64,000 nucleotides of DNA from Dehalococcoidia bacterium (GTDB lineage: Bacteria > Chloroflexota > Dehalococcoidia > Lucifugimonadales > JAPUKM01), in the NCBI GenBank assembly GCA_965248865.1, contig CBDFKP010000002.1, positions 376,610 to 440,609 of the forward strand, read 5' to 3'. The position numbers and the translations under genes are program-made. Under the pieces are notes generated by a model. That model searched no databases. It had not been told where the DNA came from and saw nothing but the letters and a program-made list of their open reading frames with translations. Positions 34,248 to 59,504 of this stretch are shown piece by piece (within the stretch, counting starts at the first letter, position 1; each line of letters opens with the position of its first letter).

Positions 34248-34331
34248 CATGTGGTCACTCCCGATACCCACCATAGTGGATGGTCTTACATCGGCCCGAA
34301 ATTCCTTGGTCACCGTCATCCTAATCCGGAA

Positions 34332-37076: not shown

Positions 37077-38939
37077 ATGAAGAAGAACCTACAGCCGCTC
37101 ACACCGGCGGCGCTCTACGCCAGGGTCTCCAGCGAGCGGCAGGACGTGGACCTGTCCGTGTCCGCCCAGCTCAGGGCGCTCAAGGACTACGCCAAGGCCA
37201 ACGGCTACTCCGTAGCCCGCGAGTACGTGGACGAGGCCGAGAGCGGACGCGTCGCCGACAGGCCCCAGTTCAGGGAGATGATCGAGGAGGGGAGCAAGCC
37301 AAAGGCCCCGTTCCAGGTCATCTTGGTCTGGAAATTCTCCCGCTTCACCCGAAAGCGGGAGCACGCTGTGGCGTTCAAGTCGATGCTCCGGCGCAAAGGT
37401 GTGAGGGTCGTCTCCATCACCGAACACGCCGACGACTCCCCCACCGGCAAGCTCATGGAGGCCATCATCGAGAGCGTGGACGAGTTTTACAGCGAAAATC
37501 TTGCCGAAGACGTTACGAGGGGAATGAGGGAGGCGGCTTCGAGAGGCTTCTTCCTCGGCTCCAAGGCCCCCTTCGGCTACAAACGAGTCAAGGTCAGCGA
37601 CGGAGCCAAGGAGCGTCCCACCCTGGAGGTTGACCCTGCCACCGCTCCAATAGTGAAGGAAATCTTCGAGAGCTCGCTCAGCGGCTACGGCCTCAAGGAG
37701 ATATGCAGGACCCTGAACGACCGGGGCATCACCAACAGGGGCAAACGCTGGTACAAGGGAGGACTCCACTACCTGCTGACCAACGAAGCCTACACCGGAA
37801 CCGCCGTCTGGGGCAGGACGGCGAAGGTAGAGAAGGCCCAGGACCCGGTGCGAGTGGAGGGAGCATGGCCCGCGCTGGTGTCTAGGGAGCTGTTCGACGC
37901 CGTTCAGGAGGCAATGCGGGACCGAGCACCGAAGGTGCGAAGACCCGCGAGAGTGGGGAGCAGGTTCCTGCTGAGCGGTCTGCTGAAGTGTGGAGTGTGC
38001 GGCAGGCCCTACTCCGGCCAGGGGGCCAAGAGCGGGCAGTTCGCCTACTACATCTGCGGCACACTGTTCAGGGAAGGCGCGGGGACATGCAGCGCCCGCT
38101 ACCTGAACACTCCCAGGGTGGAGGAGTTCGTCGTCGAGAAGATCAGGGAGCGGATTCTGACCGAGGAGACCATCGTTGAGTTGGTGAAGCTGGTGGCCGA
38201 GGAGATCGACGCTATGGCCGGTGAGCTGTCCGGCAGGCTGGAGGTCATCGACGCCGAGCTAGGGGACGTGAGGAAGCGTCTTGAGCGGCTCTACGAGGCC
38301 CTTGAAACGAGCGAGTTGATGTTGGAGGTCCTGTCGCCCCGAATCTTCTCTCTGAGGCACCGTGAGGAGCAGCTTGAGGCTGCGCGTGACGACGCCGCAA
38401 CTCAGTTGGAGCAGCGAAGGGTGGAGTTGCCGACCACCGAGGAGATCAAGGGGTACGTGGCGGACTTCCGGGAGTTCTTGCAAGAAGGGACGTTCCCTGA
38501 GCGCAAGGCGCTCATCCGCAACTTCGTGGAGGGCATTGAGGTCACCGGAGACGAGGCCGTTCTGACGTACACCATCCCCATGCCCAGCGATGGAGTGACC
38601 TCGGAATCGGCCTCGGTTCTTGATTTCGTCCAGTCCGGCCCGCCAGGCGTCCCAGGTGGGCGGCCGTTTTCTCAGTTCTGGACTTGCGAGATGAGAGAGA
38701 GCATGGTGGCCAATGCTGAACGGATGACTCAGTGCTCACAGGGAGTATGGAGCAGCGGGATTGACCAGTCGACAAACAATCCTCTCCGTGAAGTCTTACT
38801 GCAAGATCGGAGGGGTAGCGGATGTCATTTCATTGAGTTTCAAGAAAGTGTGACCACCACCGCGGCTGAGACGCTGTATCAGGAGAGACAACGGCAATGC
38901 GATGGTCGGCGCAAGCTCTTTATCGCAAGCTCTTTATAG
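37077..38939 (+). CDS. large serine recombinase (Rec1); last ~98 codons look like read-through past the att-like site
   Basis: Resolvase catalytic domain (ALYARVSSERQD...VWKFSRFTR), recombinase domain and Zn ribbon (CGVCGRPY...YYICG). Collinear and mostly identical with the 49020-50678 product up to ...VLDFVQSGPP. Confidence 0.88.
   Translation: MKKNLQPLTPAALYARVSSERQDVDLSVSAQLRALKDYAKANGYSVAREYVDEAESGRVADRPQFREMIEEGSKPKAPFQVILVWKFSRFTRKREHAVAFKSMLRRKGVRVVSITEHADDSPTGKLMEAIIESVDEFYSENLAEDVTRGMREAASRGFFLGSKAPFGYKRVKVSDGAKERPTLEVDPATAPIVKEIFESSLSGYGLKEICRTLNDRGITNRGKRWYKGGLHYLLTNEAYTGTAVWGRTAKVEKAQDPVRVEGAWPALVSRELFDAVQEAMRDRAPKVRRPARVGSRFLLSGLLKCGVCGRPYSGQGAKSGQFAYYICGTLFREGAGTCSARYLNTPRVEEFVVEKIRERILTEETIVELVKLVAEEIDAMAGELSGRLEVIDAELGDVRKRLERLYEALETSELMLEVLSPRIFSLRHREEQLEAARDDAATQLEQRRVELPTTEEIKGYVADFREFLQEGTFPERKALIRNFVEGIEVTGDEAVLTYTIPMPSDGVTSESASVLDFVQSGPPGVPGGRPFSQFWTCEMRESMVANAERMTQCSQGVWSSGIDQSTNNPLREVLLQDRRGSGCHFIEFQESVTTTAAETLYQERQRQCDGRRKLFIASSL
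38616..38665 (+). other. att-like site S1 (hybrid: consensus left arm, divergent right arm)
   Basis: GTTC TTGATTTC GTCC AGTC | CGGCCCGCCA | GGCGTCCCAGGTGGGCGGCC. Homology to Rec2 ends at 38646. Confidence 0.55.
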
Positions 38940-39005
38940 TGGTGGTAGGCTATTCTTTGGTGCTGTGGCTGCTACGGTAGTAGTTAGCCTGAAAGGAGGT
39001 ACCCT

Positions 39006-40019
39006 ATGAGATGGATCGGAACCATAGCAACCTCTCTGGTCGTGATAATTATGGCCGTTCCCACCCTGGGGATCGTGCTTTTCTTTGTCCCCGTAGGGTT
39101 GTGGCTAAGTGCGTTGTTCGCCGGTGTCCCGGTGAGCCTGAGCACCTTGATGGGGATGCGTATGCGTAAAGTAAGCCCCAACGCCATCGTCCCGTCCCTG
39201 ATTTCTGCCACCAAGGCAGGTCTAGAGCTCGACATCAACGAGATGGAGGCTCATCACTTGTCCGGTGGATCCGTAGGACGAGTAGTCGCCGCCATGATTT
39301 CTGCCGAAAAGGCGACCATAGAGTTGCCTTGGCGACAAGCCACTGCCATTGACCTAGCCGGGCGTGACGTATTGGAGGCGGTTCAGACCAGCGTCAATCC
39401 CAAGGTCATCAATACACCCAATGTTTCAGCCGTGGCTAAGGACGGCATTCAGCTCATCGCCATTGCCCGGGTAACGGTCCGGGCCAACCTGGACCGGCTT
39501 GTGGGCGGTGCAGGCGAGGAGACCATTCTAGCGCGTGTGGGGGAGGGTACTGTGTCTGCCATCGGCTCGGCTGGCAGTCACAAAGAGGTATTGGAGAATC
39601 CGGATCAGATATCGAAACGGGTGCTGGCGGGTGGGTTGGACCAAGGCACGGCTTTTGAGATACTGTCTATCGATATCGCCGACGTGGACGTTGGAAAGAA
39701 CATCGGTGCTCAGCTTCAGATAGACCAGGCAGAGGCTGACAAGCAGATCGCCCAGGCCCAGGCTGAGCAACGCAGGGCCGCCGCAGTGGCTGCAGAGCAG
39801 GAAATGGTGGCCAAGACTCAGGAGATGCGCGCCCTGGTCGTAGAGGCTGAAGCTGAAGTGCCCAGGGCTATGGCAGAGGCCTTCCGATCGGGTAACCTGG
39901 GAATCATGGACTATCACCGAATGCGCAATATTCAGGCCGATACCCAAATGAGGGAGAGTCTAGGGCAAGATCGGGAACAGGGGCTAGGGGGCCAATCTCC
40001 CGGTGGAAGTGCTTCATAG
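39006..40019 (+). CDS. floA: flotillin-like protein FloA (SPFH domain, UPF0365/YqfA family)
   Basis: Near-collinear with FloA hallmark stretches: [77 protein letters not shown]. Confidence 0.9.
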
Positions 40020-40082
40020 CAGCCGTTTCTAGTACAGTGCAGGCGGTTGTAGTTGAAGCAAAACGAGCGGTAAGGACTTGAT

Positions 40083-40343
40083 ATGGAAAGTAAGGAGGGC
40101 ATGAAAGAACTGCTGAGCCCGCAAGAAGAGAATCTAGAAACGCATCTCAGCGATGAGCCTGAAGGCCAGATACCATCAACTGTTCATCCTACCCCGACCT
40201 TGGGAACTGATGCCGACCTTGGACTCGCTTTTCGCAAGAGAGGGAGCGCTGCGCAGAGGCTGTTGAACCGTGGCAATTTGAGGCGAGCAATCCTGGTGAC
40301 AGAGATACTTTCTCCGCCTTTGACCTTTCGGCCTGGGAGTTAG
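40083..40343 (+). CDS. hypothetical small protein
   Basis: 86-aa ORF downstream of floA with no motif recognised. Coding status uncertain. Confidence 0.3.
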   Translation: MESKEGMKELLSPQEENLETHLSDEPEGQIPSTVHPTPTLGTDADLGLAFRKRGSAAQRLLNRGNLRRAILVTEILSPPLTFRPGS

Positions 40344-40663
40344 ACAGGGGTTCCGGAAATACGTGCTAGAGCAGGTACGAGATTGCACTCTACCGTGGTG
40401 GGAGACCTCGTCCGAGCTTGGTTGGGACCGCGACCGAATCGACGAAAGATGGGAAGGGTAGTCAGATGAGAAGGGAAATAGAAACCCGGTCAAGAGGAGG
40501 AACTATGGCGTCGCAAGAAAAAATAGACCGGATTGAAGCGAAGTGGCGGGAACTTTACGGCAAGGGTCCTGGGAATCTATAGTTTCATCGAGGCTGGCAA
40601 GGAGCGGCTTACTCGGGAGACCGAAGTGCTCCGCGACCTCTCACGTCTCGGTGAGGCCAGTCA

Positions 40664-40957
40664 TCAGCCTCCGTTCGATCCGACCGCTGAGACTGCTGTG
40701 TAGCCGACGAACATCTTCCACTGTTTGCCGTACAATCTAACCACCAACTCAAAGACGGTTCTGCCTACCGTCAACTTAGGCCCACCAGACTTGACAAAAT
40801 CAAGAACTTTCAGCTTGAGATTCAAGCTGGCGGTATAGTAGGTGCTCGGCCTCCAGCAGCAGTAGTGCTCCGGGGCCACGTCCCCAACCAACCTTCCAGT
40901 CGGGCACGGATCTTGCCATTGACTTCGGTCGGTAGTATGTGTAACGATATTACACAC
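40664..40957 (-). pseudogene. LSR gene 3'-tail relic (probably the detached tail of Rec3)
   Basis: The minus strand reads ...LKVLDFVKSGGPKLTVGRTVFEL..., matching the conserved Rec tail VLDFVQSGPP / STVKSGGPDWTKSRT. Confidence 0.55.
40758..40807 (+). other. att-like site S4 (both arms near consensus)
   Basis: GTTC TGCCTACC GTCA ACTT | AGGCCCACCA | GACT TGAC AAAATCAA GAAC. The 14-mer GGCCCACCAGACTT (40779-40792) is identical to 50577-50590. Confidence 0.6.
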
Positions 40958-40983
40958 TCACCTTAGCCCGGTTGGAGGTCGAT

Positions 40984-41259
40984 ATGGCCAGAGTGCAGTT
41001 GGTAATGGCGGACAATGACCGAGACCGCTTTGTTCACCAGGCGCGGCAGTAGGGCATGTCCCTCAGCGCCTGGCTGCGTGAAGCTGCGCACGAGCGCCTC
41101 GAAAAGCGCCAGATCGTCAAGCTATTCCAGTCACCTGAGGACGTTGAGGAGTTTTTCAGGTCATGCGCTACGCTGGAAGGCCCAGAGACGGAGCCGGACT
41201 GGGATGAACACTTGCGCGTCATGAGCGAGTCGCGCGGCCGAGGAGTTGCCAGAACGTGA
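40984..41259 (+). pseudogene. vapB: RHH-type VapB antitoxin with in-frame TAG at codon 23
   Basis: MARVQLVMADNDRDRFVHQARQ*GMSLSAWLREAAHERL, with TAG at 41050-41052. Its stop overlaps the vapC start. Confidence 0.65.
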
Positions 41260-41651
41260 TTTTCGTCGACACCAACGTCTTCATGTACGCCGTAGGACGC
41301 CCCCACGTTCTCCAGACAAATGCCCAAGGATTCTTCGTCGAAGCTAACCGAAGTGGCACACCGCTGTGCACTTCAGCAGAGGTCATGCAGGAACTGGCCC
41401 ATGCGTACTTGCCCATCGGAAGGCTGCAAACCTTCGATGCAACGCTGGACTTGATAGCAAGCGCCGGAGTTGAGGTTTGGCCGCTGGAGGAGGCGGACGT
41501 GGCTCTGGCCCGTCAACTCCATGAGCAATATCCCGCGTTACAAGCCCGAGACCTCTGCCACCTAGCCAGTTGTCGAAGGCGTGGAGTCCGAGAGGTCAAG
41601 ACCTTTGACCAAACATTCGCGGCCGTATCCAGCAATCCATCAATCCCATAG
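41256..41651 (+). CDS. vapC: PIN-domain toxin VapC
   Basis: MIFVDTNVFMYAV, SAEVMQEL and ARDLCHLA give the PIN acidic residues in order. 131 aa. Confidence 0.82.
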   Translation: MIFVDTNVFMYAVGRPHVLQTNAQGFFVEANRSGTPLCTSAEVMQELAHAYLPIGRLQTFDATLDLIASAGVEVWPLEEADVALARQLHEQYPALQARDLCHLASCRRRGVREVKTFDQTFAAVSSNPSIP

Positions 41652-41699
41652 AGGAGAGAGAAACAGGGTTGGCCGCAAGCTAACTGCCTGAATGTAAGT

Positions 41700-44597
41700 A
41701 TGCCACGCCAGACCGAGCCGAACGCGAACAACGCACTGGGCGACCTGCTGCGAGGCATGATGCCGGGCTGTGAAGTCCGCTCCGAGAACACCCAGACCTT
41801 CACCGACCATCCGGGCCGCCACGCCGATGTGCTGATAGCCGCGCCGGGGCGCTCGCCAGTAGTCGTCGAAGCCGAATATGCGCCGGCCTCTGAGGTCGAA
41901 AAGGACGCCTCCGAAAGGCTGGGGCTTCACGTGCAGGGACAACCCCGAACTGTCGAGGCTGCTATCGCAGTTCGCTACCCGCAGGTTGTAGAGGACGCCT
42001 ATGACTTGCGCCCGGTCCTCGCCGAATCCCGTCTTTCCTACTATGTCCTGCACCAAGACGGCAGCCGCTTCCCTGAATCGGGATGGCTTGAGGGTTCGGC
42101 AACCGATCTGGCTGACCTTGGACGACTGGTATCCATACCACAGAAAGCCGTGGAACAGGCGGCCGATACCCTCGAGCAAGGCATTGGGCAGGCCGCCAAC
42201 CTGTTGGAGGACATGGCCAAGCTCCGCCCCAATGTCACTCCTGTCATCGCTCGGTTGCTGGGAATGAGCGACGTTTCCCAGACCCGCCGCATGGCCTGCG
42301 CCATCATCGCTAACGCCATGATCTTCCACCAACGCATCGCAGGGATGCACCAGGAGGTGAAACCTCTGCGGCTGGTGTGCGGCCCCAATGTTGCAGACCC
42401 CCAGGGTGAGGTACTGGCGGCCTGGGAAGATATCCTGAAGATCAACTACTGGCCCATCTTTGCCATAGCCAAGGACATCTTGGAGCAGCTTCCCGGAGAC
42501 GTTGCCACTAGCATCTTGCGGGAACTGTTGGAGACTGCCCAGGAAGTTGAAGCAACCGGCGTCGACAACGCCCACGACCTGACAGGCCGCATATTTCAAC
42601 GGCTTATCGCTGATCGGAAGTATCTGGCTACCTTCTACACGCTTCCAGCCTCGGCCGCGCTGTTGGCCCGGCTCGCCGTGGCCAAGATGGATTCCGTGGA
42701 CTGGTCCGACGCCGGGGCCATCGGCAGGCTGCGCATCGGAGATTTTGCCTGTGGCACCGGTGCCCTGCTGTCGGCGGTGTACGAGCAGGTTGCATCCCGC
42801 CATGAACGCGCTGGTGGCGACTCCACATCGCTGCATCCCGTGATGATGGAGGAGGTCCTATATGGCTGCGACGTCATGCCCTCGGCCATTCACATCACCG
42901 GCTCCACCCTGTCCGGTATGCGGCCCAACGTGGGATTCAATCAGTCCCGTCTCTACACCATGCCCTACGGAAAGCAGAAGGACAGCACGGTGAAGATAGG
43001 TTCCCTGGAGTTACTCCAAGCCTCCACAGCCTTGACCTTGTTCAATACCAGCGACCCAGCTCTGCGCACTGGCAGCGTGGGAGAGGAGACTGCTGCCCAG
43101 ATCAACGTGGACATCCCGGACGCGAACTTTGACCTGGTGATAATGAATCCACCCTTCACCAGGGCAACCAACCATGAAGGTGCCCATGCGGATATCACCA
43201 ACCCCGCCTTCGCCGCATTTGACGCCACGCCCGCTGACCAAACGGAGATGGGACACCGGATCAACCAGTTGGGGAAGGACTCCTGCTACCACGGCAACGC
43301 TGGAATCGCTTCAGCATTCGCTGCGCTGGCCCACAAGAAGCTCAGGTTCGGTGGAGTCCTTGCCCTGGTATTGCCACTGTCGGCAGCCGCTGGTCTTTCA
43401 TGGCAGGGGTTCAGGGAAACGTTGGCCAAGAACTATACCGACCTTACCGTGTTGAGCATCGCGGCTTCGGACAACGATCACCTGTCGTTCTCAGCCGATA
43501 CTGGCATGGCCGAGTGCCTGGTCATAGCTCGCAAGGTCAAGCAAGCTGAGGCACCAACGGGACGAGGGCACTTCATATCCCTGGGCCGCCGTGCCCAAGG
43601 GTTTGCCCATGCAACTTCACTGGCGATGAACGTCTCCAGTCCTCAAAAGGCGAGACGGGTTGAGGATGGGCCTTATGGCGGCACCGCTTTAATGATCGGT
43701 GACGAGCTGGCCGGCGACAGCATGACCGTCCCGGTGCAGACGGACGGGGCATCATGGGGTGCGGTCCGTCTGTCCGACTTATCGCTGGCTCAGGCAGCTT
43801 TCGCATTGGCTAAATCCAAGCTATGGCTTCCCGGCAGCCACTCGGCGTTGGACGTGAAAGTGGCTCCGTTGAACAAGACATCTAAACTCGGCTTGGTTGA
43901 TCGAGACATCACGGGACCACGACCTCGCGGCCCATTCGACAAGATGGCCCCAACTCCTACAGCTACTTATCCGTCTCTGTGGAATCACGATGCTAAGAAC
44001 GAGACTCGGATGGCCTGCCAGCCAGACTCCCAGCTCCGGGTCAGGTCGGGAATGGAGGAGAAAGCCGCAATTGCCTGGGCTACGGCCAGCCGCGCTCACG
44101 TCAATCGCGATTTCAGGTTCAACTCGCAGCCGTTGACCGCAGCGTTCACTGAGCAGGAAAGCATGGGTGGCAGAGCGTGGCCCAACGTAAGGTTTCCAGA
44201 CAGCCGGTTCGATTACGCGTTCACGCTGTGGTCTAACTCTACGCTCGGGCTGCTGCTGTATTGGTGGCACTCAAACCGGCAGCACAGTGGTCGAGGCACC
44301 ACTACTATCAGAAACGTTGAATCACTGCCCGTCCTGGACCTCCACGCCCTCAGCGACGAGCAGCAGCGCACCTCTGAGGCCATCTTCAACGAACTGAGAG
44401 ACATGGAGTTGAAGCCCGCCTATCTTGCCGACGCCGATCCCAACCGGGCGCTGCTGGACCGCAGGATCGTCTGCGATCTTCTGGGCTTCGACGAGGATGT
44501 GTACGAGGGAGTTCGGAGGCTGTCGGCCAAATGGTGCGCCGAGCCGTCGGTGCACGGCGGGAAGGCGCGGCCAAAGGCTGCCCAGCTCGTGATCTAG
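41700..44597 (+). CDS. fused N6-adenine DNA methyltransferase with nuclease-like N-terminus and TaqI_C-like C-terminal domain (type IIG restriction-modification-like)
   Basis: SAM motif I DFACGTGALL (42741-42770) and motif IV NPPF (43146-43157). The C-terminal pattern FTLWSNSTLGLLLYWWH...IRNVESLPVLDL is typical of MTase target-recognition domains. The N-terminal HADVLIAAPGRSPVVVEAEY could be a PD-(D/E)xK-like core. Confidence 0.75.
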   Translation: MPRQTEPNANNALGDLLRGMMPGCEVRSENTQTFTDHPGRHADVLIAAPGRSPVVVEAEYAPASEVEKDASERLGLHVQGQPRTVEAAIAVRYPQVVEDAYDLRPVLAESRLSYYVLHQDGSRFPESGWLEGSATDLADLGRLVSIPQKAVEQAADTLEQGIGQAANLLEDMAKLRPNVTPVIARLLGMSDVSQTRRMACAIIANAMIFHQRIAGMHQEVKPLRLVCGPNVADPQGEVLAAWEDILKINYWPIFAIAKDILEQLPGDVATSILRELLETAQEVEATGVDNAHDLTGRIFQRLIADRKYLATFYTLPASAALLARLAVAKMDSVDWSDAGAIGRLRIGDFACGTGALLSAVYEQVASRHERAGGDSTSLHPVMMEEVLYGCDVMPSAIHITGSTLSGMRPNVGFNQSRLYTMPYGKQKDSTVKIGSLELLQASTALTLFNTSDPALRTGSVGEETAAQINVDIPDANFDLVIMNPPFTRATNHEGAHADITNPAFAAFDATPADQTEMGHRINQLGKDSCYHGNAGIASAFAALAHKKLRFGGVLALVLPLSAAAGLSWQGFRETLAKNYTDLTVLSIAASDNDHLSFSADTGMAECLVIARKVKQAEAPTGRGHFISLGRRAQGFAHATSLAMNVSSPQKARRVEDGPYGGTALMIGDELAGDSMTVPVQTDGASWGAVRLSDLSLAQAAFALAKSKLWLPGSHSALDVKVAPLNKTSKLGLVDRDITGPRPRGPFDKMAPTPTATYPSLWNHDAKNETRMACQPDSQLRVRSGMEEKAAIAWATASRAHVNRDFRFNSQPLTAAFTEQESMGGRAWPNVRFPDSRFDYAFTLWSNSTLGLLLYWWHSNRQHSGRGTTTIRNVESLPVLDLHALSDEQQRTSEAIFNELRDMELKPAYLADADPNRALLDRRIVCDLLGFDEDVYEGVRRLSAKWCAEPSVHGGKARPKAAQLVI

Positions 44598-44696
44598 TGT
44601 CGGTGATCCCGCCGAAGCCAGAGAAGGCGCTTTCCATTCACCGGTGCTGACATGTAGTGGCTGCGCACCGTATATGCACGTTGCTACTATTGATGC

Positions 44697-46406
44697 ATGG
44701 CTCTCACCGAACGACAGCTTCTCGACTCCCTCAGCAGGATGCCTTTCATCGACTCAGCAGAGTTGGCAGGCATCCTGGGGGAGCCTCACACGACCATCCA
44801 CCGCGCCCTAACCGGCCTGCTGGCCGCCGGCGTGGTCGGCCGAGTGAGTCACGGGACTGCCCACCTGCCGTCGAGCCAGAGGTACTACCTGACGGCCAAC
44901 GGCATCGGGGAGGCCGCCGGGATACTCGGCTTCGACACCCCATCGGACTTCGTGCGAATCTACCCGGTGTCCAGGGAGTGGCTGGCGCTGCTCATCCGCC
45001 GGATGGACGCGGTGGCCGCCGTCTATCGTCTCGCCGCCTCACTCTCCCCCGGCATCGACGGCCTACGGTCGCACGTGGAGTTCCACCGCCGGGGCCGCTT
45101 CGACGCCACGATCACCCTCCACGACGGGCGCAGCTTCGGAATGGTACGCCAGAGCCTGGCTCTTCGTCGGCGCTCGCTCTACGACCGGCTGAGGGCCATA
45201 GCGGAGTACGACTACACGCGCCGCCCTGACACGATCCTGGTCCTGACCCCCAGCGTCTGGGAGCAGAGACTGACAACGAGGTTCTGCATGGAGCTGAACC
45301 TTGAAGGCTCTTACGTCGGCGAGGAGTCTCGGGACGTACTCGAAAGACGGGACTCCCACGTCTGGCAGAAGACCTCAGGCCTGTTCAGTGGCTCGTACTA
45401 CACCCTCGATTTCGTGAGCTCACAGGGCGACGCCAGCGGAAGACTCTGCACCGAGTCCCCGAATCGGAAGCGGGCATCGATACCCCATCCTGAGCGGATG
45501 GTGCGGGCTGCGCCGACCTTCGGCATCAGCCCATCGGAGAAGCGGACCCTCGACCTAGTTACCGACCACCCTATGACCCCCCGTGAGCACCTGGCTCGCT
45601 GGCTCGGCGTTTCGGAGGGACGGGTTAGCCAGATGATGCATAACCTCGTCGATACGTGGGGCTTGATGGAGCGACAGGGAAAACGTGGAGACACGCGCTA
45701 CACCCTGTCCACCGAGGGCATCCGCTACATCACCCACCGGGACCGCGCCCAGCTCCCCACCACGCAGGGCATCTGGAGCACGGCCCTCACGACCGACCGG
45801 CAGGACCGGAGACGACACGTAGGCCATCGGATCGACACGTGGGCGCGTCAGACGAAGCACGCCGACGGCATCACATGGTTCCTCTCAAAGTTTGAGGCGG
45901 AGACCCGGGCCGATTCCGACAGCGAGCTGCTCTGGTCTGTCCCCACCGCGAGGTCCGACCGGGCCTACAACTGGGGCGATTCCGCTATTGCTCCCGACGC
46001 CGTGGGGAAGGTGATTGCACAGGGCCTCGACGTACCGTTCTACCTCGAGTACGAGCTGCGGGCCAGGCATCCCCAGGGAGTCATTGCCCGCCTGAGTCCC
46101 TACACGAGCTACTACTGGTCCACCGAACCAGGGGAAGACCAGCCCCCGTTCCCCACCACCCTGTTCGTCGTGGACACAGAGGAGGTCGAGGCCACCTACG
46201 TGCGCACGGCGGCCAGGATGAGTCTGATGTCGCTGCCCATACTCGTGTCCTGCATGCCCGTCTTGTCCACAACAGGGATACTGGGGCGGTCATGGCATCC
46301 CCTCTGGGAGCCGGAATCCCCGCGACTGGCCCTGTCAGGGCTGAGCGCCTACCAGTGGGACCCACTCTACCACCGGATGCGTCAGCGTCCTGTAGGGGGG
46401 GAATAG
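44697..46406 (+). CDS. duplicated wHTH / Replic_Relax-like protein
   Basis: Two wHTH modules (LSRMPFIDSAELAGILGEPHTTIHRALTGLLAAGVV and DHPMTPREHLARWLGVSEGRVSQMMHNLVDTWGLM). Each is followed by a PDA...FYLEYE-type segment as in replication-relaxation family proteins. Confidence 0.6.
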   Translation: MALTERQLLDSLSRMPFIDSAELAGILGEPHTTIHRALTGLLAAGVVGRVSHGTAHLPSSQRYYLTANGIGEAAGILGFDTPSDFVRIYPVSREWLALLIRRMDAVAAVYRLAASLSPGIDGLRSHVEFHRRGRFDATITLHDGRSFGMVRQSLALRRRSLYDRLRAIAEYDYTRRPDTILVLTPSVWEQRLTTRFCMELNLEGSYVGEESRDVLERRDSHVWQKTSGLFSGSYYTLDFVSSQGDASGRLCTESPNRKRASIPHPERMVRAAPTFGISPSEKRTLDLVTDHPMTPREHLARWLGVSEGRVSQMMHNLVDTWGLMERQGKRGDTRYTLSTEGIRYITHRDRAQLPTTQGIWSTALTTDRQDRRRHVGHRIDTWARQTKHADGITWFLSKFEAETRADSDSELLWSVPTARSDRAYNWGDSAIAPDAVGKVIAQGLDVPFYLEYELRARHPQGVIARLSPYTSYYWSTEPGEDQPPFPTTLFVVDTEEVEATYVRTAARMSLMSLPILVSCMPVLSTTGILGRSWHPLWEPESPRLALSGLSAYQWDPLYHRMRQRPVGGE

Positions 46407-46527
46407 ATAGGGCCGATGTGTCCCTATCTCCCCGGTATGCTGTCTGGGGCTGGAAGTTGGGATAACCGGAGCGATTTCTGAGGTCTGTCGACGCCCAAAC
46501 TGCCCTGTTTTAGCTATGAACCGGGGT

Positions 46528-46630
46528 TGACGTGTCGCCTGACGTGTCATGGAGCAAATTGGGATTCTGCGCTAAAATACAGGGGCCGAAGAATTGTAGT
46601 TTTGCAACCCATGACGAGGGCTGACGTGTC
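46528..46630 (+). promoter_or_regulatory. three direct copies of TGACGTGTC around the start of the excisionase-like gene
   Basis: Copies at 46528-46536, 46540-46548 and 46622-46630. A TAAAAT -10-like hexamer lies at 46573-46578. Confidence 0.4.
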
Positions 46631-47117
46631 AACCGATAGAGAAGAAAAAGCTAGGCATGAGCCTGTCCGCTGGGTCTCGAAAACAGAGGCGGCGGAGGAG
46701 CTGGAGATATCCCTTTCAACTCTCGATCGGAAGATCAGGAAGGGAGAGGTCGAGGTTGTCCGTGAGGGCCGCCGGGTCTATGTGCGGATGCACGGGTCGG
46801 AGTATCTGAGCGACCACGAGCTGCTGCGCCGGGCCATCGCCAGGGAGGATGAGCTTCAGCGGACAGTGCGGGAGTTGGAGCGGAGCGTGTCGGACTTGGA
46901 TCTTAGAGCATCCGAGTTGGAGCGGGAGCGGGACGAGGCCAGGGAGTCCGCATCCGCCAGCAGACGGCCTTACGAGGAGCTGGAGAAGGCGTACCGGAAG
47001 GAGATCGCCGAGCATAAGGAGACGAAGGAAGTGGTCATCGCAGTACGCGTGACCGCCATCGTGCTGTTGGTGCTTCTGGTCGCCAGCGTTCTCGTGTGGT
47101 GGTTTGTGCTGAGGTAG
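46611..47117 (+). CDS. excisionase-family HTH protein with coiled coil and C-terminal TM helix
   Basis: VSKTEAAEELEISLSTLDRKIRKGEVEVVREGRRVYV (HTH_17-like), then a heptad-rich acidic/basic segment, then VIAVRVTAIVLLVLLVASVLVWWFVL. Confidence 0.65.
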   Translation: MTRADVSTDREEKARHEPVRWVSKTEAAEELEISLSTLDRKIRKGEVEVVREGRRVYVRMHGSEYLSDHELLRRAIAREDELQRTVRELERSVSDLDLRASELERERDEARESASASRRPYEELEKAYRKEIAEHKETKEVVIAVRVTAIVLLVLLVASVLVWWFVLR

Positions 47118-47574
47118 GGCGTCCACGCGTTGTGCTGTGCCTGGACCACCTGCAGAGGCAACGGACGGGGAGCACGGCTCACGGAACCCGGTTCGGGGCC
47201 TATCCCCAGTTCCCGTCACTTTGTACAGCGGCATTTTGTCCACTTTTGTAGGTAGCATTGTCCTCTGCCGCCCGATTTGCCAACCGGCGTTTTGTTCACT
47301 CTCGTAGCTAAGACTGTTCTGTGGCCGTGGAAGGAGCACCAGAATCAAATTGCTTGCTCCGATGTCGCAGACTGCTTGGTTTCCCCTCGATTTCAGCTAG
47401 GAAATCACCAAACCTACAACTCGTCCACAAACTCAAACTCCTGTACACGTGTATGACACCACCATAGGCTCCGCGATTCTCCTGCCCTGTGAGGGGGGCT
47501 GCGTGCGAGCCCTGCCAGACCCGTCGTTGCATCCGCAACAACTTCGTCTATCCACTGGGAACCAGTGTTTAGCC

Positions 47575-47603
47575 TTGACATGATTAACGGCACACGTTAA
47601 TAT
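47575..47603 (+). promoter_or_regulatory. sigma70-type promoter with embedded palindromic operator upstream of higB
   Basis: TTGACA (47575-47580), 17-nt spacer, TAATAT (47598-47603). Inverted repeat ATTAACG-N5-CGTTAAT (47583-47601). Confidence 0.6.
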
Positions 47604-47605
47604 CA

Positions 47606-47890
47606 TTGGCGGTGGATAGATTTCGAGATGGCGACGCTCAACGCCTCTTCGCCGGACAAACGGTTCGGCGCTTACCGCCTGACATTCAACGCAGGGCGAG
47701 GATGCGGTTACAACGGGTGATTGCAGCTACGGCGTTGACCGACCTTCGGGTGCCACCATCCCATCGGCTGGAAGCATTGCGGGGAGACCGGGCTGGGCAG
47801 TTCAGCATCCGCATAAACGACCAGTGGCGGGTGTGCTTCATCTGGACAGACCAGGGCGCGATGGAGATAGAAATCACTGACTACCACTGA
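47606..47890 (+). CDS. higB: HigB-type (RelE/ParE superfamily) toxin
   Basis: RFRDGDAQRLF...LRVPPSHRLEALRGDRAGQFSIRINDQWRVCFIW...EIEITDYH is the canonical HigB pattern. The start may be a leaderless GTG at 47612. Confidence 0.85.
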   Translation: MAVDRFRDGDAQRLFAGQTVRRLPPDIQRRARMRLQRVIAATALTDLRVPPSHRLEALRGDRAGQFSIRINDQWRVCFIWTDQGAMEIEITDYH

Positions 47891-47901
47891 GGAGGACATC
47901 A

Positions 47902-48195
47902 ATGACTAATACGGTCGAACCGATTCACCCTGGAGAGCATCTGTCAGAGATCATGGAGGAGCTGGGCATCACCCAGTATCGCCTGGCAAAGACCATAGGA
48001 GCGCCGCCTATACGCATCCATGACATCGTGCATTGTCGGAGGTCCATCACTGTGGACACTGCGCTGAAGATCGGAAAGGCTCTGGGAACAACTCCGGAGT
48101 TCTGGTTGAATCTTCAGCGGATGTACGACCTGGACGTAGCCCGGGCCACTACCGACGTAAGTGGGATTGAGCCTCTGGTCAAGGCGTCTGCATGA
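47902..48195 (+). CDS. higA: HigA-type antitoxin (XRE HTH)
   Basis: IHPGEHLSEIMEELGITQYRLAKTIGAPPIRIHDIVHCRRSITVDTALKIGKALGTTPEFWLNLQ is the canonical HigA pattern. Confidence 0.88.
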   Translation: MTNTVEPIHPGEHLSEIMEELGITQYRLAKTIGAPPIRIHDIVHCRRSITVDTALKIGKALGTTPEFWLNLQRMYDLDVARATTDVSGIEPLVKASA

Positions 48196-48956
48196 TGCAG
48201 GAATCGCGGTTGCCCCCGAACCTGCGAGGTGGCGCAAGTTTCAGCCACTTTAATCCCCAATCCAGTCTGCTGGCCAATGGCCTAGACTTTCTAGTCAGCG
48301 CCGCGGAGTTTGCATCACGTGATGACGAACGAAGTTGGAAATATGCCGTCTTGCATCTGTGGTACGGGCTGGAATTGCTCCTAAAGGCGAGGTTAGAGCG
48401 TGAGCACTGGTCGCTGCTATTTTCCAACATTGACCACGCAGATCGGCTGAAGCTCATCAGCGGCGACTTCTTATCAGTAGATTCTAACCAAGCCTATAAA
48501 CGTCTCAAGCAGATTTGCGACATCGAGATAGACCCTTCGGACTGGAAACACTTGATTGCACTGCGGAATCGAAGCAACCGCATCAGGCATCATGTTGCTG
48601 AATACAACTCCATACAGGTCAAGTCAATGGTGTGGAGGTGTATGAACATCGGTCTTGCATTTTGTGAATCACAACAGATGCAAGAGGACAGTAGAACAAT
48701 TCAAAGGCAGTTCTATAAAGTTGGCTCGCTTTTGAAGGGGTTTGACGATTTTGTCAATGACCGGTTGAAAGTCATTTCGTTGCACCCTGATTTCGACCCC
48801 GATGTAAAATGCATGGAGTGTTGGCAAACTACTTGTGTCATTGATGCCAACGGAATCCTGTGTCAGTTTTGTGGGGTAGAGATTGATGCTGAAACCCTAA
48901 ACCAGTGGATGGCGGAGATAGAATTAGACGCCTCGGACAGTGCAGAACACCAATAG
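48192..48956 (+). CDS. hypothetical protein with HEPN-like Rx4-6H motif and C-terminal CxxC...CxxC Zn ribbon
   Basis: ATG overlaps the higA stop (ATGA). LIALRNRSNRIRHH (48564-48593) fits the HEPN RNxxxH-type motif. CMEC...CQFC lies at 48810-48872. AT-richer than neighbours. Confidence 0.6.
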   Translation: MMQESRLPPNLRGGASFSHFNPQSSLLANGLDFLVSAAEFASRDDERSWKYAVLHLWYGLELLLKARLEREHWSLLFSNIDHADRLKLISGDFLSVDSNQAYKRLKQICDIEIDPSDWKHLIALRNRSNRIRHHVAEYNSIQVKSMVWRCMNIGLAFCESQQMQEDSRTIQRQFYKVGSLLKGFDDFVNDRLKVISLHPDFDPDVKCMECWQTTCVIDANGILCQFCGVEIDAETLNQWMAEIELDASDSAEHQ

Positions 48957-49019
48957 GCGAATGCCGCAGATCAGGACCAATGTGACTAGAAAGGGATGAC
49001 AAATAGGGAGGAAGACTAA

Positions 49020-50678
49020 ATGAAACATAAGCAACCCCTAACACCCGCGGCCCTCTACGCCAGGGTGTCCAGCGACCGTCAGGACGTGGACCTGTCCGTG
49101 TCCGCCCAGCTCAGAGCGCTCAAGGACTACGCCAGAGCCAACGGCTACTCCGTGGCCCGCGAGTACGTGGACGAGGCCGAGAGCGGCCGCGTGGCCGACA
49201 GGCCCCAGTTCCGGGAGATGATTGAGGAGGGCGGCAAGCCCAACGCTCCCTTTGAGGTCATCTTGGTATGGAAATTCTCCCGCTTCACCCGCAAGCGGGA
49301 GCACGCCGTCGCTTTCAAGTCCATGCTGCGGCGCAAGGGCATCCGCGTCGTGTCCATCACCGAGCACGCCGACGACTCCCCGACCGGCAAGCTCATGGAG
49401 GCCATCATCGAGAGCGTGGACGAATTTTACTCAGAGAATCTTGCGCAGGAGGTCGTCCGTGGTATGCGGGAAGCCGCATCACGAGGCTTCTTCCTCGGCT
49501 CCAAGGCCCCCTTCGGCTACAGGCGGGTCAAGGTCAGCGACGGAGCCAAGGAGCGTCCCACCCTGGAGGTTGACCCTGCCACCGCTCCGGTGGTGAAGGA
49601 GATATTCGAGAGTTCGCTCAGCGGCTACGGCCTCAAGGAAATATGCAGGACCCTGAACGACCGGGGCATCACCAACAGGGGAAAGCGCTGGTACAAGGGA
49701 GGACTCCACTACCTGCTGACCAACGAAGCCTACACCGGAACCGCCGTCTGGGGCAGAACCACCAAGGTAGAGAAGGCCCAGGACCCGGTGCGAGTGGAGG
49801 GAGCATGGCCCGCCCTGGTGTCTAGGGAGCTGTTCGATGCCGTGCAGCAGGCGATGCGGGACCGTGCCCCGAAGGTGCAGAGGCCCGGTAGAGTGGGGAG
49901 CAAGTTCCTGCTGAGCGGTCTGCTCAAGTGCGGGGTGTGCGGCAGGCCCTACAGTGGCCAGGGGGCCAAGAGCGGCCAGTTCGCCTACTACGTCTGCGGG
50001 ACATTGTTCCGGGAGGGAGCGGGGACGTGCAGCGCACGCTACCTGAACGCCCCCAGGGTGGAGGACTTCATTGTTGAGAAGATACGGGAGCGAATTCTCA
50101 CCGAGGAGACCATCGTGGAGCTGGTGACCCTGGTGGCGGAAGAGATCGACGCAATGGCCGGTGAGCTGTCCGGCAGGCTGGAGGTCATCGAGGCCGAGCT
50201 AGGGGACGTGAGGAAGCGTCTTGAGCGGCTCTACGAGGCCCTTGAAACGAGCGAGTTGACGTTGGAGGTCCTGTCGCCCCGAATCTTCTCGCTGAGGCAC
50301 CGTGAGGAGCAACTGGAGGCTGCGAGAGAGGACGCCGAGACCCAGCTTGAGCAGCGGAGGGTTGAGCTTCCGACCACCGAGGAGATCAAGGGGTACGTGG
50401 CGGACTTCCGGGAGTTCTTGCAAGAGGGGACGTTCCCCGAGCGCAAGGCCCTCATCCGCAACTTCGTGGAGGGCATCGAGGTGGTGGGAGACGAGGCGAC
50501 GCTGACGTACACCGTTCCCATGCCAAAGGACGGTGTGAAGCGGGAATCGGCCTCGGTTCTCGATTTCGTCCAGTCCGGCCCACCAGACTTTACTGTACTG
50601 CGAACTCGCCTGTTTAGGGCGACCTCTGCGGTGTCCGCTCCCCCTATTGGCGAGTCCTCCGGCGTGGGTATGGAGTAG
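49020..50678 (+). CDS. large serine recombinase (Rec2)
   Basis: Same domain set as Rec1. Its tail VLDFVQSGPPDFTVLRT runs through the att-like site, and the last about 30 codons are antisense to Rec3. Confidence 0.88.
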   Translation: MKHKQPLTPAALYARVSSDRQDVDLSVSAQLRALKDYARANGYSVAREYVDEAESGRVADRPQFREMIEEGGKPNAPFEVILVWKFSRFTRKREHAVAFKSMLRRKGIRVVSITEHADDSPTGKLMEAIIESVDEFYSENLAQEVVRGMREAASRGFFLGSKAPFGYRRVKVSDGAKERPTLEVDPATAPVVKEIFESSLSGYGLKEICRTLNDRGITNRGKRWYKGGLHYLLTNEAYTGTAVWGRTTKVEKAQDPVRVEGAWPALVSRELFDAVQQAMRDRAPKVQRPGRVGSKFLLSGLLKCGVCGRPYSGQGAKSGQFAYYVCGTLFREGAGTCSARYLNAPRVEDFIVEKIRERILTEETIVELVTLVAEEIDAMAGELSGRLEVIEAELGDVRKRLERLYEALETSELTLEVLSPRIFSLRHREEQLEAAREDAETQLEQRRVELPTTEEIKGYVADFREFLQEGTFPERKALIRNFVEGIEVVGDEATLTYTVPMPKDGVKRESASVLDFVQSGPPDFTVLRTRLFRATSAVSAPPIGESSGVGME

Positions 50679-51733
50679 ACGATGGCGGCCTTGCCGGGCT
50701 TGACCTCGATCTCCTTGACGAAGGAGTGGACGAAGGCCCTGGTCTCGGTAAGCTCGCTGGTTTTCAGGAAGTCGCTCATCTCGGCGGCGAAGGTGGCGAC
50801 AGTGTCGGCGCTGTCCAGGAACTGCCGCCGTTCCGAGAACAGCCCTCTGGCCTCCTCCGCGGCGACCTCCAGCTTCTCCTTGCGCTCCCGGAGTTCCACG
50901 ATGAGGTCCGAAGCCTCGGCCACGTCGACGCTGTCGCTTTTCGCTACGAAGTTCCAGACGCGGCCCAGTTGCTTCTTCACGTCCTCAAGCTCTTCGTCGA
51001 TGGTCTGAAGCCGCTGCCGCTGCTCGTGGGCCACCCCGTCCATCTCCTCGTCCAGCAGCTTCACCAGGTCGCGGATGTTGGACTCGGTGAGGATGTTGGC
51101 CCGAATCTCATCGACGATGAGCTTCTCGAAGGACTTGGCGTTGAGCCTGGGGGTCTCGCAGGCGCCGCTGCCCCGCTTGAGGAGGGAGTGGCAGACGTAG
51201 TAGGTGTACTTACCGCCCTTGGCCTCGGCCGCGGTCATGGCCTTGCCGCAGGTCTCGCACCTGAGCAGACCGCTGAGCAGGTAGGGGCTGGCGGAGCGCC
51301 GTGGGTGGACCTTCTTCGGAGCGCGGGACCCCAGCAGCTTGGTGACCCTTTGGAACTGCCGCCTGGAGACGATGGCGGGGTGTGCGCCCTCGACGCGCAC
51401 GGGCGGCGCGCCGTCCTTCGCGGTTGTTCCCCAGACCAACGTGCCTGTGTAGGCTTCGTTGAGCAGCACGTTGTGGACGGAGGTCTTGGACCACTGCTTT
51501 CCCCTGGGGCTGGCCACGCCCTCGGCGTTGAGGGCCTTGGTCACGTCGAGGGTGCTGCTGCCCTGGAGCACCATGTCGAAGATGCGGCGGGCCACGGCAT
51601 CGGCGGGCGGGTCAAGCTCCAGCTTGGGGCGCTTCTTCGGCCCGTCCTGGACGTAGACCTTCCGGTAGCCGTAGGGGGCGTAGGTGGTGACCCAGAATCC
51701 GCGAGAAGCGGCTTCCCGCATCCCCCGCGCCAC
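50231..51733 (-). pseudogene. large serine recombinase (Rec3), 5'-truncated (catalytic resolvase domain missing)
   Basis: Starts at the equivalent of Rec1/2 residue about 145 (ILAQEVARGMREAASRGFW vs NLAQEVVRGMREAASRGFF), with homology lost at about 51750. Recombinase domain and Zn ribbon (CETCGKAM...YYVCH) are present. Codons beyond ...STVKSGGPDWT are antisense to Rec2. Confidence 0.75.
50556..50605 (+). other. att-like site S2/3, fully symmetric arms
   Basis: GTTC TCGATTTC GTCC AGTC | CGGCCCACCA | GACT TTAC TGTACTGC GAAC. The left arm ends Rec2 (+) and the right arm ends Rec3 (-). Confidence 0.65.
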
Positions 51734-51931
51734 CTCTTGGGCGAGGATATCGGTTATTCAATCGAAACAAAAAGATCAGGTATACATGGGCGGTTGGACT
51801 TGAAGCCAGTTGACAGCGACGATTGCTCACGAAACCTGCGTGGTTCGAACCCCCGTTACCGGGGGCCTAGGATAGAAACGAGAAGAATTAAGCCCACATT
51901 TCCCAGATCAGCCGCGTGGGTGCGTCGTAAT

Positions 51932-53633
51932 CCGGTAAGATTGCTGCCTATTTGAGCCGCATACCTGGGCATTATGGGCAGTGTGGGTGCTAGACTGGCC
52001 GAGCTAGCGGGATCTAGTTCTGGATACCGCAATCTCGCTGGAGGCACCCAATGGGTGAAAGCTCCGACACCCTTTTGAAGCTCCAATTCGACCGCAGAGT
52101 CCGCCTGGATTTTCGTGGCGCTACCATCACCTCGGACGCCGGACTCCTGGCATGCCGCGAGCTTGATGCCGCTCTGGGGCTCACAGAGACAGCCAACGAT
52201 TATATCCATGAAAGCCGCACCGGCCGCAACGTGCAACACCCGCTGTTGCCCTTGCTCAGACAATCGGTGTATAGCCGTCTCGCTGGCTATGAGGACACCA
52301 ACGACGCTGAACGGCTTGCCCAAGACCCGGCTATGCGGGTCATCGTCGGGTGGCAAGGTACTGATAAGCAGGCAGCCAGCACCAACACTATGAGCCGATT
52401 TGAGACTGAGGTGTTAACCGAAGAGGAGAACCTGGATGGGCTTGCGCGCCTGAATGTTGAGTGGGTGGCCAGGGCCATGGCCCAGACATCTCACCAGCGA
52501 GTTATCCTAGACATGGACAGATCTGAAAGCCCGGTGCATGGGCAGCAAGAGGGAGTCGCCTACAACGGCCACTTCGAGTCCGTATGTTATCACCCGCTCT
52601 TCCTGTTCAACCATTTCGGAGATTGCGAAGGTGCAATGCTTCGACAGGGCAACGTCCACAGCGCTGAGCGGTGGCGGGAGGTTCTGGAGCCAGTCGTGAA
52701 GCGATACCAGGAGAAAGGAGTCCGGCTGCTGTTCCGGGCCGATGCTGCCTTTGCCAAGCCCGAGGTGTACGAGTACCTGGGGTCAAGGGACACTGGCTAC
52801 GCTATGCGGCTTCCGGCCAACGAGGTATTACAACGAAACATCCGCCACCTACTGAAGCGGCCCGTGGGCAGGCCGCCTAAGAAGCCCGTAGTCCGGTATC
52901 ACGACTTCGTTTACCAGGCCCAGAGCTGGGACATTCCCCGGCGTGTGGTCGCCAAGGTGGAGTGGCACCAGGGTGAGCTATTCCCGAGGGTCGGGTTCGT
53001 CGTCACCAACCTCAACCTACCGCCGGCAGGCGTAACCCACTTCTACAACGGGCGGGGCACGGCCGAGCAGTGGATCAAGGAAGGTAAATACGCCCTGAAC
53101 TGGACGCGGCTCTCGTGTCACAGGTTCGTTGCTAACCAGGTGAGGCTGTGGCTGTTTGTACTGGCCTACAACCTGGGCAACTTCATGAGAAGGCTGACTT
53201 TGCCAGAGTCAGTGAAACACTGGTCACTGCGAAGTGTTCAGACCAAGCTCATCAAGATGGGTGGACGTCTGGTGCGGCATGCCAGGAGGTTGGTGTTTCA
53301 GCTTGCTGAGGTGGCAGTGTCCCGGGAGGTATTCCGGCAAGTGTTGGAGCGTATCGCCGGGCTCCATCCAGCACCAGGGTAGCGATTATCCTTGAGGTCA
53401 TCAGAGGTGAAGAGAGGCAACCAAGGGCGAGGTGCGTGCCCGGAGGAGTTTGAAGGGAGTGCAAACGTGGTGAAAGCCACCTCCGCTGCCTGGGGCCGCT
53501 AACTCACCACGCCGAGAGATGGTTTTGTGAGCTTGATTGGATGGTTGACGGCATCCGTGAGTGATACTAAGATGGCTCTCGTCGAGGATGGTACCTTGCT
53601 TGGACCCAGGCGGTTTGATATGGGTAATTCCGG
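51932..53633 (+). mobile_element. IS1380-family insertion sequence (left boundary tentative)
   Basis: The right end is fixed by comparison with the 35177-35535 fragment (...TTGATATGGGTAATTCCGG). The left end is proposed at CCGGTAAGATTGC (weak IR). No TSD seen. Confidence 0.6.
52051..53382 (+). CDS. IS1380-family DDE transposase
   Basis: Hallmarks ILDMDRSESPVHGQQEGVAYNGHFESVCYHPLF and FYNGRGTAEQWIKEGKYALNWTRLSCHRFVANQVRLWLFVLAYNL. Confidence 0.88.
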   Translation: MGESSDTLLKLQFDRRVRLDFRGATITSDAGLLACRELDAALGLTETANDYIHESRTGRNVQHPLLPLLRQSVYSRLAGYEDTNDAERLAQDPAMRVIVGWQGTDKQAASTNTMSRFETEVLTEEENLDGLARLNVEWVARAMAQTSHQRVILDMDRSESPVHGQQEGVAYNGHFESVCYHPLFLFNHFGDCEGAMLRQGNVHSAERWREVLEPVVKRYQEKGVRLLFRADAAFAKPEVYEYLGSRDTGYAMRLPANEVLQRNIRHLLKRPVGRPPKKPVVRYHDFVYQAQSWDIPRRVVAKVEWHQGELFPRVGFVVTNLNLPPAGVTHFYNGRGTAEQWIKEGKYALNWTRLSCHRFVANQVRLWLFVLAYNLGNFMRRLTLPESVKHWSLRSVQTKLIKMGGRLVRHARRLVFQLAEVAVSREVFRQVLERIAGLHPAPG

Positions 53634-59394: not shown

Positions 59395-59504
59395 TGTAGA
59401 CCGTCAGCGATAATGGGACACGTGAGAGGGGTAGAAAACCCGAGAGTCTGAGAGTGGTGTGAGCTCCTGAAGTGAGGGTAGAGTACCTCATGAAAGGAGC
59501 AGCG

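Follow-up and report, generated by a model that had tools for sequence, protein, structure and literature searches.

Why two large serine recombinase genes of different families should meet tail to tail, each reading on into the antisense strand of the other, is the question raised by a 64,000-nucleotide stretch of a Dehalococcoidia bacterium genome (GenBank assembly GCA_965248865.1, contig CBDFKP010000002.1, positions 376,610 to 440,609; hereafter the window). Three large serine recombinases were identified in the window by their Pfam domains and are here called Rec1, Rec2, and Rec3. A first-pass annotation had proposed that Rec2 forms the right edge of an integrative element that is bounded by a 14-bp direct repeat and interrupts the tail of Rec3. 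Our analysis indicated that positions 40782-50581 (9,798 bp) are very probably a 9.8-kb integrative element of the large serine recombinase type, which belongs to uncultured, sponge-type Dehalococcoidia, is probably mobilizable, and was inserted into the Rec3 tail. Both junctions, unoccupied sites, an attP-type junction in a relative, the match of the displaced tail, and recurrence elsewhere were observed directly.

Exactly two copies of the 14-mer GGCCCACCAGACTT were present in the window, the left at 40779-40792 and the right at 50577-50590, both on the plus strand and thus in the same orientation, as the first-pass annotation had reported. By itself this repeat is not significant, because chance alone would give about 8 exact 14-mer pairs per 64 kb [(64000^2/2)/4^14]; its significance comes from its placement. 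Rec2 (49020-50678, plus strand) is an intact recombinase with Resolvase (PF00239, 9.6e-32), Recombinase (PF07508, 6.8e-26), and Zn_ribbon_recom (PF13408, 1.3e-15) domains, and alignment placed the catalytic serine motif YARVSSDRQ at its N terminus. Its best NCBIfam match was CcrB, far under the cutoff. The paralogue Rec1 (37077-38939, plus strand), likewise complete by Pfam, was 90% identical to Rec2 up to ..LDFVQSGPP, with the two proteins being unrelated beyond. At the DNA level, the two genes shared 89% identity (37092-38646 against 49032-50586), which stopped inside the repeat. Tails of the 120 closest Rec2 homologues, the sample used for all Rec2 tail counts, diverged directly after SGP(P), and the last 31 codons of Rec2 (after 50584) were antisense read-through of Rec3. 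Since the Rec1/Rec2 homology ends within it, the repeat marks the point at which genes of this recombinase type were joined by recombination to other DNA at their 3' end.

The gene on the other side of the junction is a remnant. Rec3 (50582-51757, minus strand) is convergent to Rec2 and 38% identical to it, and represents a second large serine recombinase family. Besides its C-terminal region, it retained a Recombinase and a zinc-ribbon domain but no Pfam Resolvase domain; it begins at about residue 147 of the full-length protein, with the ∼146 N-terminal residues (the catalytic domain) missing. Its present open reading frame (ORF; 50231-51733, minus strand) reads on through antisense Rec2 to position 50231. 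The displaced 3' tail was found beyond the far end of the element, at 40664-40781 on the minus strand, where translation of the rejoined site gave ..P KLTVGRTVFELVVRLYGKQWKMFVGYTAVSAVGSNGG up to a stop codon at 40664-40666. Rejoined Rec3 thus reads ..STVKSGGP followed by KLTVGRTVFELVV.., and the tail KLTVGRTVFEL.. predicted earlier, which translated as stated up to the predicted stop, matched the native tails of homologues. A homology search with the rejoined protein returned two 397-aa proteins, P0003 and P0005, that were 96 to 97% identical and had an uninterrupted tail, KLTVGRTVFEMLLEL before the stop in P0003. Among the 120 closest Rec3 homologues, which served for all Rec3 tail counts, one-half (60) ended in a native-type tail (consensus KLTVDRTIFEMWLGAL, then stop), 19 had xxTRT-type tails, and 18 ended, as the window copy does, in antisense read-through of a convergent recombinase.

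Unoccupied sites were found on three metagenome contigs (L001, L002, and L003). In these, the window sequence 50577-51773/51854 aligned at 97% and ran unbroken into 40795-40741/40748, with both repeat copies mapping onto a single copy, and L001 equaled the left half of attL, the core, and the right half of attR base for base. The uninterrupted Rec3 homologues by which the first-pass annotation had proposed to check the insertion thus exist, with exactly the predicted sequence. Homology in all three loci extended past the truncated 5' end of Rec3, and the N-terminal truncation was identical. Because the unoccupied alleles are truncated at the same point, the truncation must have preceded the insertion. 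It had been suggested that excision would rejoin Rec3 to its tail; the sequence would indeed be restored, but Rec3 is, as judged from its domain content, a relic without a catalytic domain, and the tail would be restored on a dead gene.

Several further observations concern the Rec3 family. One-half of its proteins keep the native tail (..GGP-KWTVDRTIFEMWLGAL, then stop), although they lie in megabase-size chromosomes with differing downstream genes. These include imuB-dnaE2 (L086) and defense-like ATPases (L085), and DNA conservation ended at about the stop codon; the contexts downstream of the native tail differed among L001, L002, L085, L086, and the window. A 6-bp hairpin followed by TTTGAG, located in the outer arm of the Rec3-tail site (40754-40772, minus strand), was flagged by a terminator scan, but the region has fewer terminator-like sites than shuffled controls, and the hairpin may mean nothing. 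At 62701-62856 (minus strand) lies a ∼160-bp fragment that resembles a Rec3-type C-terminal region (85% nucleotide identity to 50665-50782) and is probably another relic; no recognizable att site was found near it.

The two ends of the element can be resolved into half-sites. In attL (40758-40807, plus strand), the outer arm of the Rec3-tail site (40758-40781) forms the left half and is followed on the right by the P' arm of the element, ACCAGACTTGACAAAATCAAGAAC (40784-40807). In attR (50556-50605, plus strand), the P arm of the element (50556-50579) forms the left half, located in the 3' end of Rec2, and is followed on the right by the inner arm of the Rec3-tail site (50582-50605). Joining attR-left to attL-right reconstructed attP as a 50-bp imperfect palindrome, GTTCTCGATTTCGTCCAGTCCGGC-CC-ACCAGACTTGACAAAATCAAGAAC, whose left arm is made up of the last bases that encode the recombinase (..LDFVQSGP) and whose right arm comes from the opposite end of the element; the junction predicted for the circular form reads ..GATTTCGTCCAGTCCGGCCCACCAGACTTGACAAAATCAAGAAC... 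The reciprocal join gave the Rec3-tail site GTTCTGCCTACCGTCAACTTAGGC-CC-ACCAGACTTTACTGTACTGCGAAC (..CCGTCAACTTAGGCCCACCAGACTTTACTGTACTGCGAAC..), which is likewise 50 bp long and palindrome-like.

Relatives of Rec2 occupied more than 533 genomic loci, often several per genome, of which 80 were fetched for comparison. Their hosts were Dehalococcoidia metagenome-assembled genomes, and a few records pointed to sponges. The palindrome with the repeat at its center was common to these 80 loci. At one of them (L084), the same attP-type junction was present as real DNA between two Rec2-type elements lying head to tail, with 24-nt arms that were 83% complementary around CCCA according to a repeat finder. 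The short tail foreseen for Rec2 in the circular form, PDLTKSRTFSLRFKLAV before the stop, translated as predicted and has a natural counterpart in protein P0231, which ends in PDLIKSRTFSLNLKLLL and a stop at this very junction.

Although the repeat itself is real, the earlier view that recombination takes place over its 14 bp needs refinement. The identity is a stretch over which two related att sites happen to agree and most likely not the extent of the crossover. The two junctions of L022 diverged directly left of the central CC and those of L059 directly right of it, and because of these differences the crossover is most likely the 2-bp CC (40782-40783 in the left copy and 50580-50581 in the right copy, plus strand), assuming that one position is used family-wide. 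The same dinucleotide is the symmetry center of the 50-bp palindrome.

Tail-to-tail joining, as the first-pass annotation had described it for the window, recurred in many related genomes. Antisense read-through of a convergent recombinase ended 61 of the 120 Rec2 homologues, and in ∼36 of the 80 loci a convergent recombinase abutted at the SGPP/GGP codons; these partners belonged to at least two families, and many were full length. Both junctions were seen at five loci (the window, L010, L011, L016, and L087). The P' arm (CCAGACTTGACAAAATCAAGAAC, up to 3 mismatches) was found 8.3 to 11.6 kb upstream of the recombinase in eight loci (L004, L010, L011, L016, L022, L030, L046, and L059), and in four of them joining the ends restored a recombinase ORF to its stop codon, with a tail of 14 aa in L010, L011, and L016 and of only SWTT in L059. 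The left flanks of L022 and L046 resembled a tRNA 3' end rather than a recombinase tail. Locus L087 contained an intact Rec3-type gene (98% amino acid identity) into which a different Rec2-type element of 9.55 kb had inserted at the same position, and the displaced tail, DLTVDSTTFELVVVL up to its stop, lay directly beside the outer (P') arm of that element. The left module of the window element (vapC and the genes of a 965-aa and a 569-aa protein) was present at other sites in L022 and L039 with 83 to 88% nucleotide identity. The arrangements are independent insertions and not one inherited event.

A tRNA or tmRNA gene was also considered as the target, as the core GGCCCACCA and the left flanks of L022 and L046 look like a tRNA 3' end. 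This candidate was rejected: ARAGORN detected no such gene in the window, nor in any of 18 related loci, and Rfam gave no match in the 30- to 64-kb part of the window. A tRNA origin of the target site would be at most ancestral.

Based on these results, we propose that a circular form of the element recombined with a like-built site at the 3' end of Rec3, a gene of an unrelated resident element. Rec3 was already a truncated relic at this time. The insertion would have moved its final ∼40 codons off to 40664-40781 and left Rec2 and Rec3 convergent, each running into the antisense strand of the other. We infer that Rec2 itself catalyzed this reaction. Serine integrases such as those of phiC31 and Bxb1 make a staggered 2-bp cut at the center of their sites and rejoin the ends only to a matching overhang, which sets the orientation of the insert. 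The site center reads CC on the sense strand of Rec2 and GG on the sense strand of Rec3. Given the need for matching 2-bp overhangs, only an inverted, tail-to-tail insertion would be possible, and this polarity would thus explain the arrangement without any special targeting device.

The outer flanks of 77 junctions were aligned, which revealed two spacings of a GAAC motif from the center. In the short half-site, ACC-N5-GGACTCGAAC, GAAC ends 18 nt from the center. This type was found in ∼17 loci, in L046 on both sides (..TTCGAGTCCCCCCAGCTCCACCATGAAAGTCTTGAAC..), and looks like a conventional attB. In the long half-site, GAAC ends 24 nt from the center, as it does in the arms of the element itself; this type occurred in ∼45 loci, where the flanks were the site arms of other recombinases. 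We tentatively consider, while regarding it as somewhat less probable than its negation, that the att site in a recombinase tail serves as a landing pad, with the attP of Rec2-type elements recombining directly with sites of attP geometry and the CC/GG centers forcing the tail-to-tail orientation. If this were true, about one-half of the Rec2 family would be hitchhikers on larger, ICE-like elements of the Rec3 type (ICE, integrative and conjugative element), and the intact native tails of one-half of the chromosomal Rec3-family genes could be explained in the same way.

Several points weigh against the proposed insertion or its details. The target in the window is of the long, attP-type spacing (24 nt) on both sides, unlike the shorter spacing at other targets. 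To our knowledge, the serine integrases studied so far (phiC31, Bxb1, and A118) do not recombine attP with attP-like sites, and current models give no explanation for the pairing of two sites of attP geometry. The unoccupied sites of L001 to L003 have other flanks, that is, they are homologous but not isogenic, and neither the circular form nor the empty site was seen for the source genome itself. The attP junction of the window element had no match in the JGI metagenome and IMG/VR contigs, although the relevant ENA assemblies are apparently outside both collections; an attP-type junction was observed only between the two tandem relatives in L084. Finally, a stop codon within the vapB-like gene of the element indicates some decay, so that the element may or may not still move.

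Among other explanations, the one that survives best reverses the polarity of the event. In this case, a Rec3-family enzyme supplied in trans by an intact paralogue would have acted on its own site with the attP of Rec2 as the target, or the fused composite would have arrived as a whole. On paper the reaction is symmetrical, as the two sites are palindromes of 50 bp that share their center; intact Rec3-family genes do exist in related genomes (L087), and other accreted elements are known to be transferred as whole composites (PMC5704250). Rec3 of the window, however, has no catalytic domain, and as the same truncated allele occurs unoccupied, it could not have acted after its truncation. Moreover, Rec2-type elements with the same ends were found at sites without a recombinase gene (L022, L046, and L004), which shows that they insert autonomously. 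We consider this reversed scenario unlikely.

A second explanation would regard the convergent pair as a vertically inherited cassette that is conserved for its function, for instance as an inversion switch or a system of two recombinases. The abundance of tail-to-tail pairs noted above would fit such a cassette, and two-recombinase systems are known (CcrA/CcrB and DsiA/DsiB; PMC3146451). Yet the partners of Rec2-type genes differed in family and in level of identity, their missing tail always lay on the other side of the Rec2-type element, at its opposite end, and Rec2-type elements also occurred without any partner. That partners exist unoccupied largely refutes a cassette, and we regard it as very improbable. 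Chance occurrence of the repeat in a patchwork generated by insertion sequence (IS)-mediated rearrangement, to which the ∼8 expected 14-mer pairs and the many IS copies of the window might lend themselves, is refuted by unoccupied sites that match the junction to the base and by a repeat that centers a palindrome common to 80 loci, and has a next-to-negligible probability.

The preferred reading, insertion of the Rec2 element into the Rec3 tail, leaves the question of what the element carries. From left to right, the genes are vapB (with TAG) and vapC, those of the 965-aa, 569-aa, and 196-aa proteins, higBA, that of a DUF3644 protein, and rec2. The gene list of the first-pass annotation was largely borne out, apart from the unverified label HEPN for the last cargo protein. 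The vapB-like antitoxin ORF (40985-41259, plus strand) contains an in-frame TAG codon at 41050-41052; a tblastn match to the L022 homologue covered the ORF, and no Pfam match was found, with the scan starting only at 41056. It is followed by a VapC-type PIN toxin (41256-41651, plus strand; Pfam PIN, E = 2.5e-18). The 965-aa protein (41700-44597, plus strand) has a putative Eco57I-type N6-adenine methyltransferase domain and is a candidate type IIG-like restriction-modification enzyme. It matched Pfam Eco57I marginally (25.9 bits against a cutoff of 25.3) as well as the PADLOC profiles mad2 and MTase_II, was 91 to 93% identical to the copies in L022 and L039, and no nuclease domain was identified among its Pfam and PADLOC profile matches.

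The 569-aa protein (44697-46406, plus strand) is a winged-helix backbone protein (Pfam MarR_2). It had been described as Replic_Relax-like, and indeed 13 of its 15 close homologues matched Replic_Relax (best E = 1.2e-10), but the window copy fell below detection; no relatives in the PDB were found by sequence. We infer that it is a candidate relaxase or replication protein. Most of the 80 loci had a copy of its gene upstream of the recombinase, and the partner elements bore mirror copies of it with 30% identity. Adjoining it across loci is the gene of the 196-aa protein (46527-47117, plus strand), which matched Pfam HTH_17 and NCBIfam "excise," both below the cutoff, has a coiled-coil-like C-terminal half, and is a candidate directionality factor or regulator. 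To the right follow a HigB-like toxin (47606-47890, plus strand; Pfam HigB-like_toxin, E = 3.1e-15), a HigA antitoxin (47902-48195, plus strand; NCBIfam antidote_HigA, 95.8 bits against a cutoff of 47.7), and the 254-aa DUF3644-type protein (48192-48956, plus strand), the one previously labeled HEPN. This last protein had no significant Pfam match but hit the PADLOC profiles DUF3644 (2.6e-21), HEC-08, and PDC-S64, and is a candidate defense-associated gene product. Of the two type II toxin-antitoxin pairs, both partners were thus detected for HigB and HigA, and for VapC the toxin was detected next to an antitoxin ORF with TAG.

The genes of the recombinase and of the 569-aa and 196-aa proteins were conserved across most loci and form the backbone, and the segment from the 196-aa gene to the recombinase was variable. 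The cargo is modular, with vapBC and the Eco57I-like gene at the left and higBA with the DUF3644 gene in a variable slot before the recombinase. No phage genes were found in the element, and no type IV secretion or coupling-protein families were found among the 9 of its 10 genes that were fully scanned against Pfam, the vapB-like ORF having been scanned only from 41056. At L086, an element of the Rec3 family bears genes of the TraG/VirB4-like and Replic_Relax types. It is thus reasonable, if unproven, to read the gene content as that of an integrative mobilizable element adjoining an ICE-like one.

Rec1 has its junction at 38640-38641 and a read-through tail of 98 aa, and its outer flank (GCCAGGCGTCCC..., GCCAGGCGTCCCAGG..) matched neither half-site type. 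A left end of a Rec1 element was not recognized, as no second P' arm was found in the window; the region upstream of Rec1 is interrupted by IS copies and also contains an RHH/PIN pair (35444-36189) and a membrane protein. A 219-aa ORF (33678-34337), 32% identical to part of the 569-aa protein, may be eroded backbone of the Rec1 element. It is cut by the second of two IS1595-family copies (22473-23318 and 34331-35176; 99.8% identical). The floA segment between Rec1 and the element (38647-40757) was considered as a mobile cassette and rejected, as it had no match in any fetched locus, and was treated as host-like DNA.

Two 1.55-kb IS copies with an rve-type transposase (30088-31638 and 59392-60940; 99.6% identical) lie in inverted orientation and bracket a 28-kb region with all three recombinases; these copies could be a substrate for inversion or composite mobility. 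Another IS (∼51855-53633), with a DDE_Tnp_1_4 transposase (52051-53382), is located ∼100 bp upstream of truncated Rec3, and homology to L002 stopped at 51854. A 358-bp inverted fragment of the end of this IS lies 16 kb away (35178-35535), beside an IS1595-type copy. Elsewhere, distant large serine recombinases (25 to 31% identical to Rec2) were encoded less than 10 kb from Rec2- or Rec3-type genes (L002, 170-1850; L008, 2999-4528; L031, 3506-5005; L046, 13057-14568), which suggests that several lineages of recombinases share their genomic neighborhoods.

Taken together, junctions, unoccupied sites, and independent repeats document that one family of mobile elements uses the recombinase tail of another as a preferred docking site. 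This suggests a way in which defense and addiction islands nest and build up in the genomes of sponge-symbiont Dehalococcoidia. It also explains overlong recombinase ORFs, for instance, 644-aa proteins of the Rec3 type, as antisense read-through, that is, as an annotation artifact. For recombinase engineering, the family would offer an inferred 50-bp attP, attB-type sites of ∼38 bp, and a CC crossover, and recombination between two sites of attP geometry might be possible.

The nearest described system is found within the same bacterial class. The ssrA islands of Dehalococcoides mccartyi target the 3' end of the tmRNA gene, are flanked by 20-bp ssrA direct repeats, and pile up at these repeats; their CcrB-like, 540-aa recombinase DsiB has a 3' end that overlaps attL, and their module comprises DsiB, DsiA, and RecF-like, ParB-like, Mom-like, and primase-like proteins (McMurdie et al. 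2011, PMC3146451). Shared with the window element are a ∼540-aa recombinase at the edge, with its 3' end over the att site and its stop codon set by the junction, the accumulation of islands at repeated att copies, and variable cargo. The window and its relatives differ in the absence of a tRNA or tmRNA gene from the ARAGORN and Rfam searches given above, and in a module of Replic_Relax-family protein, HTH_17 protein, and recombinase in place of that of the ssrA islands. Furthermore, ssrA islands accrete in tandem, whereas the join in the window is inverted, tail to tail, and inside a recombinase ORF. The window element is thus not a member of that family.

Accretion is also well described for ICEs, integrative and mobilizable elements (IMEs), and cis-mobilizable elements (CIMEs), such as ICESt1/ICESt3 and streptococcal IMEs, where small elements with an integrase and a relaxase adjoin conjugative ones in a similar manner, mostly by tyrosine integrases and as head-to-tail tandems at the end of a host gene (PMC5704250). 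In the case presented here, the recombinases are of the serine type, the target lies in the coding tail of a resident element, and the join is inverted. Large serine recombinases that insert and excise a small mobilizable element via a circle, with a 2-bp crossover, are represented by TnpX and TndX of Tn4451 and Tn5397. The preferred targets of these two enzymes resemble the joint of their own element. They differ from Rec2 in low target specificity, a GA crossover, and their occurrence in Firmicutes, and they are not known to insert habitually into other recombinase genes.

With the serine integrases of phages (phiC31, Bxb1, and A118/LI), Rec2 shares the three-domain protein. Phage attP is an imperfect inverted repeat of ∼50 bp whose central dinucleotide sets polarity, and the attP reconstructed from the window is built likewise. 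In a subset of the targets of the Rec2 family, the outer motifs lie ∼6 bp nearer to the center, as expected of attB from what is generally known of phage sites. The phage integrases differ in that more than one-half of the targets observed here were attP-spaced on the sequenced side, and that of the window on both sides. We found no published description of tail-to-tail docking in Dehalococcoidia or sponges, although the literature coverage was incomplete and this is weak evidence of novelty. Compared with all of these systems, habitual tail-to-tail docking into the tails of other recombinases, as seen in about one-half of the family, is a new variant of site-specific accretion.

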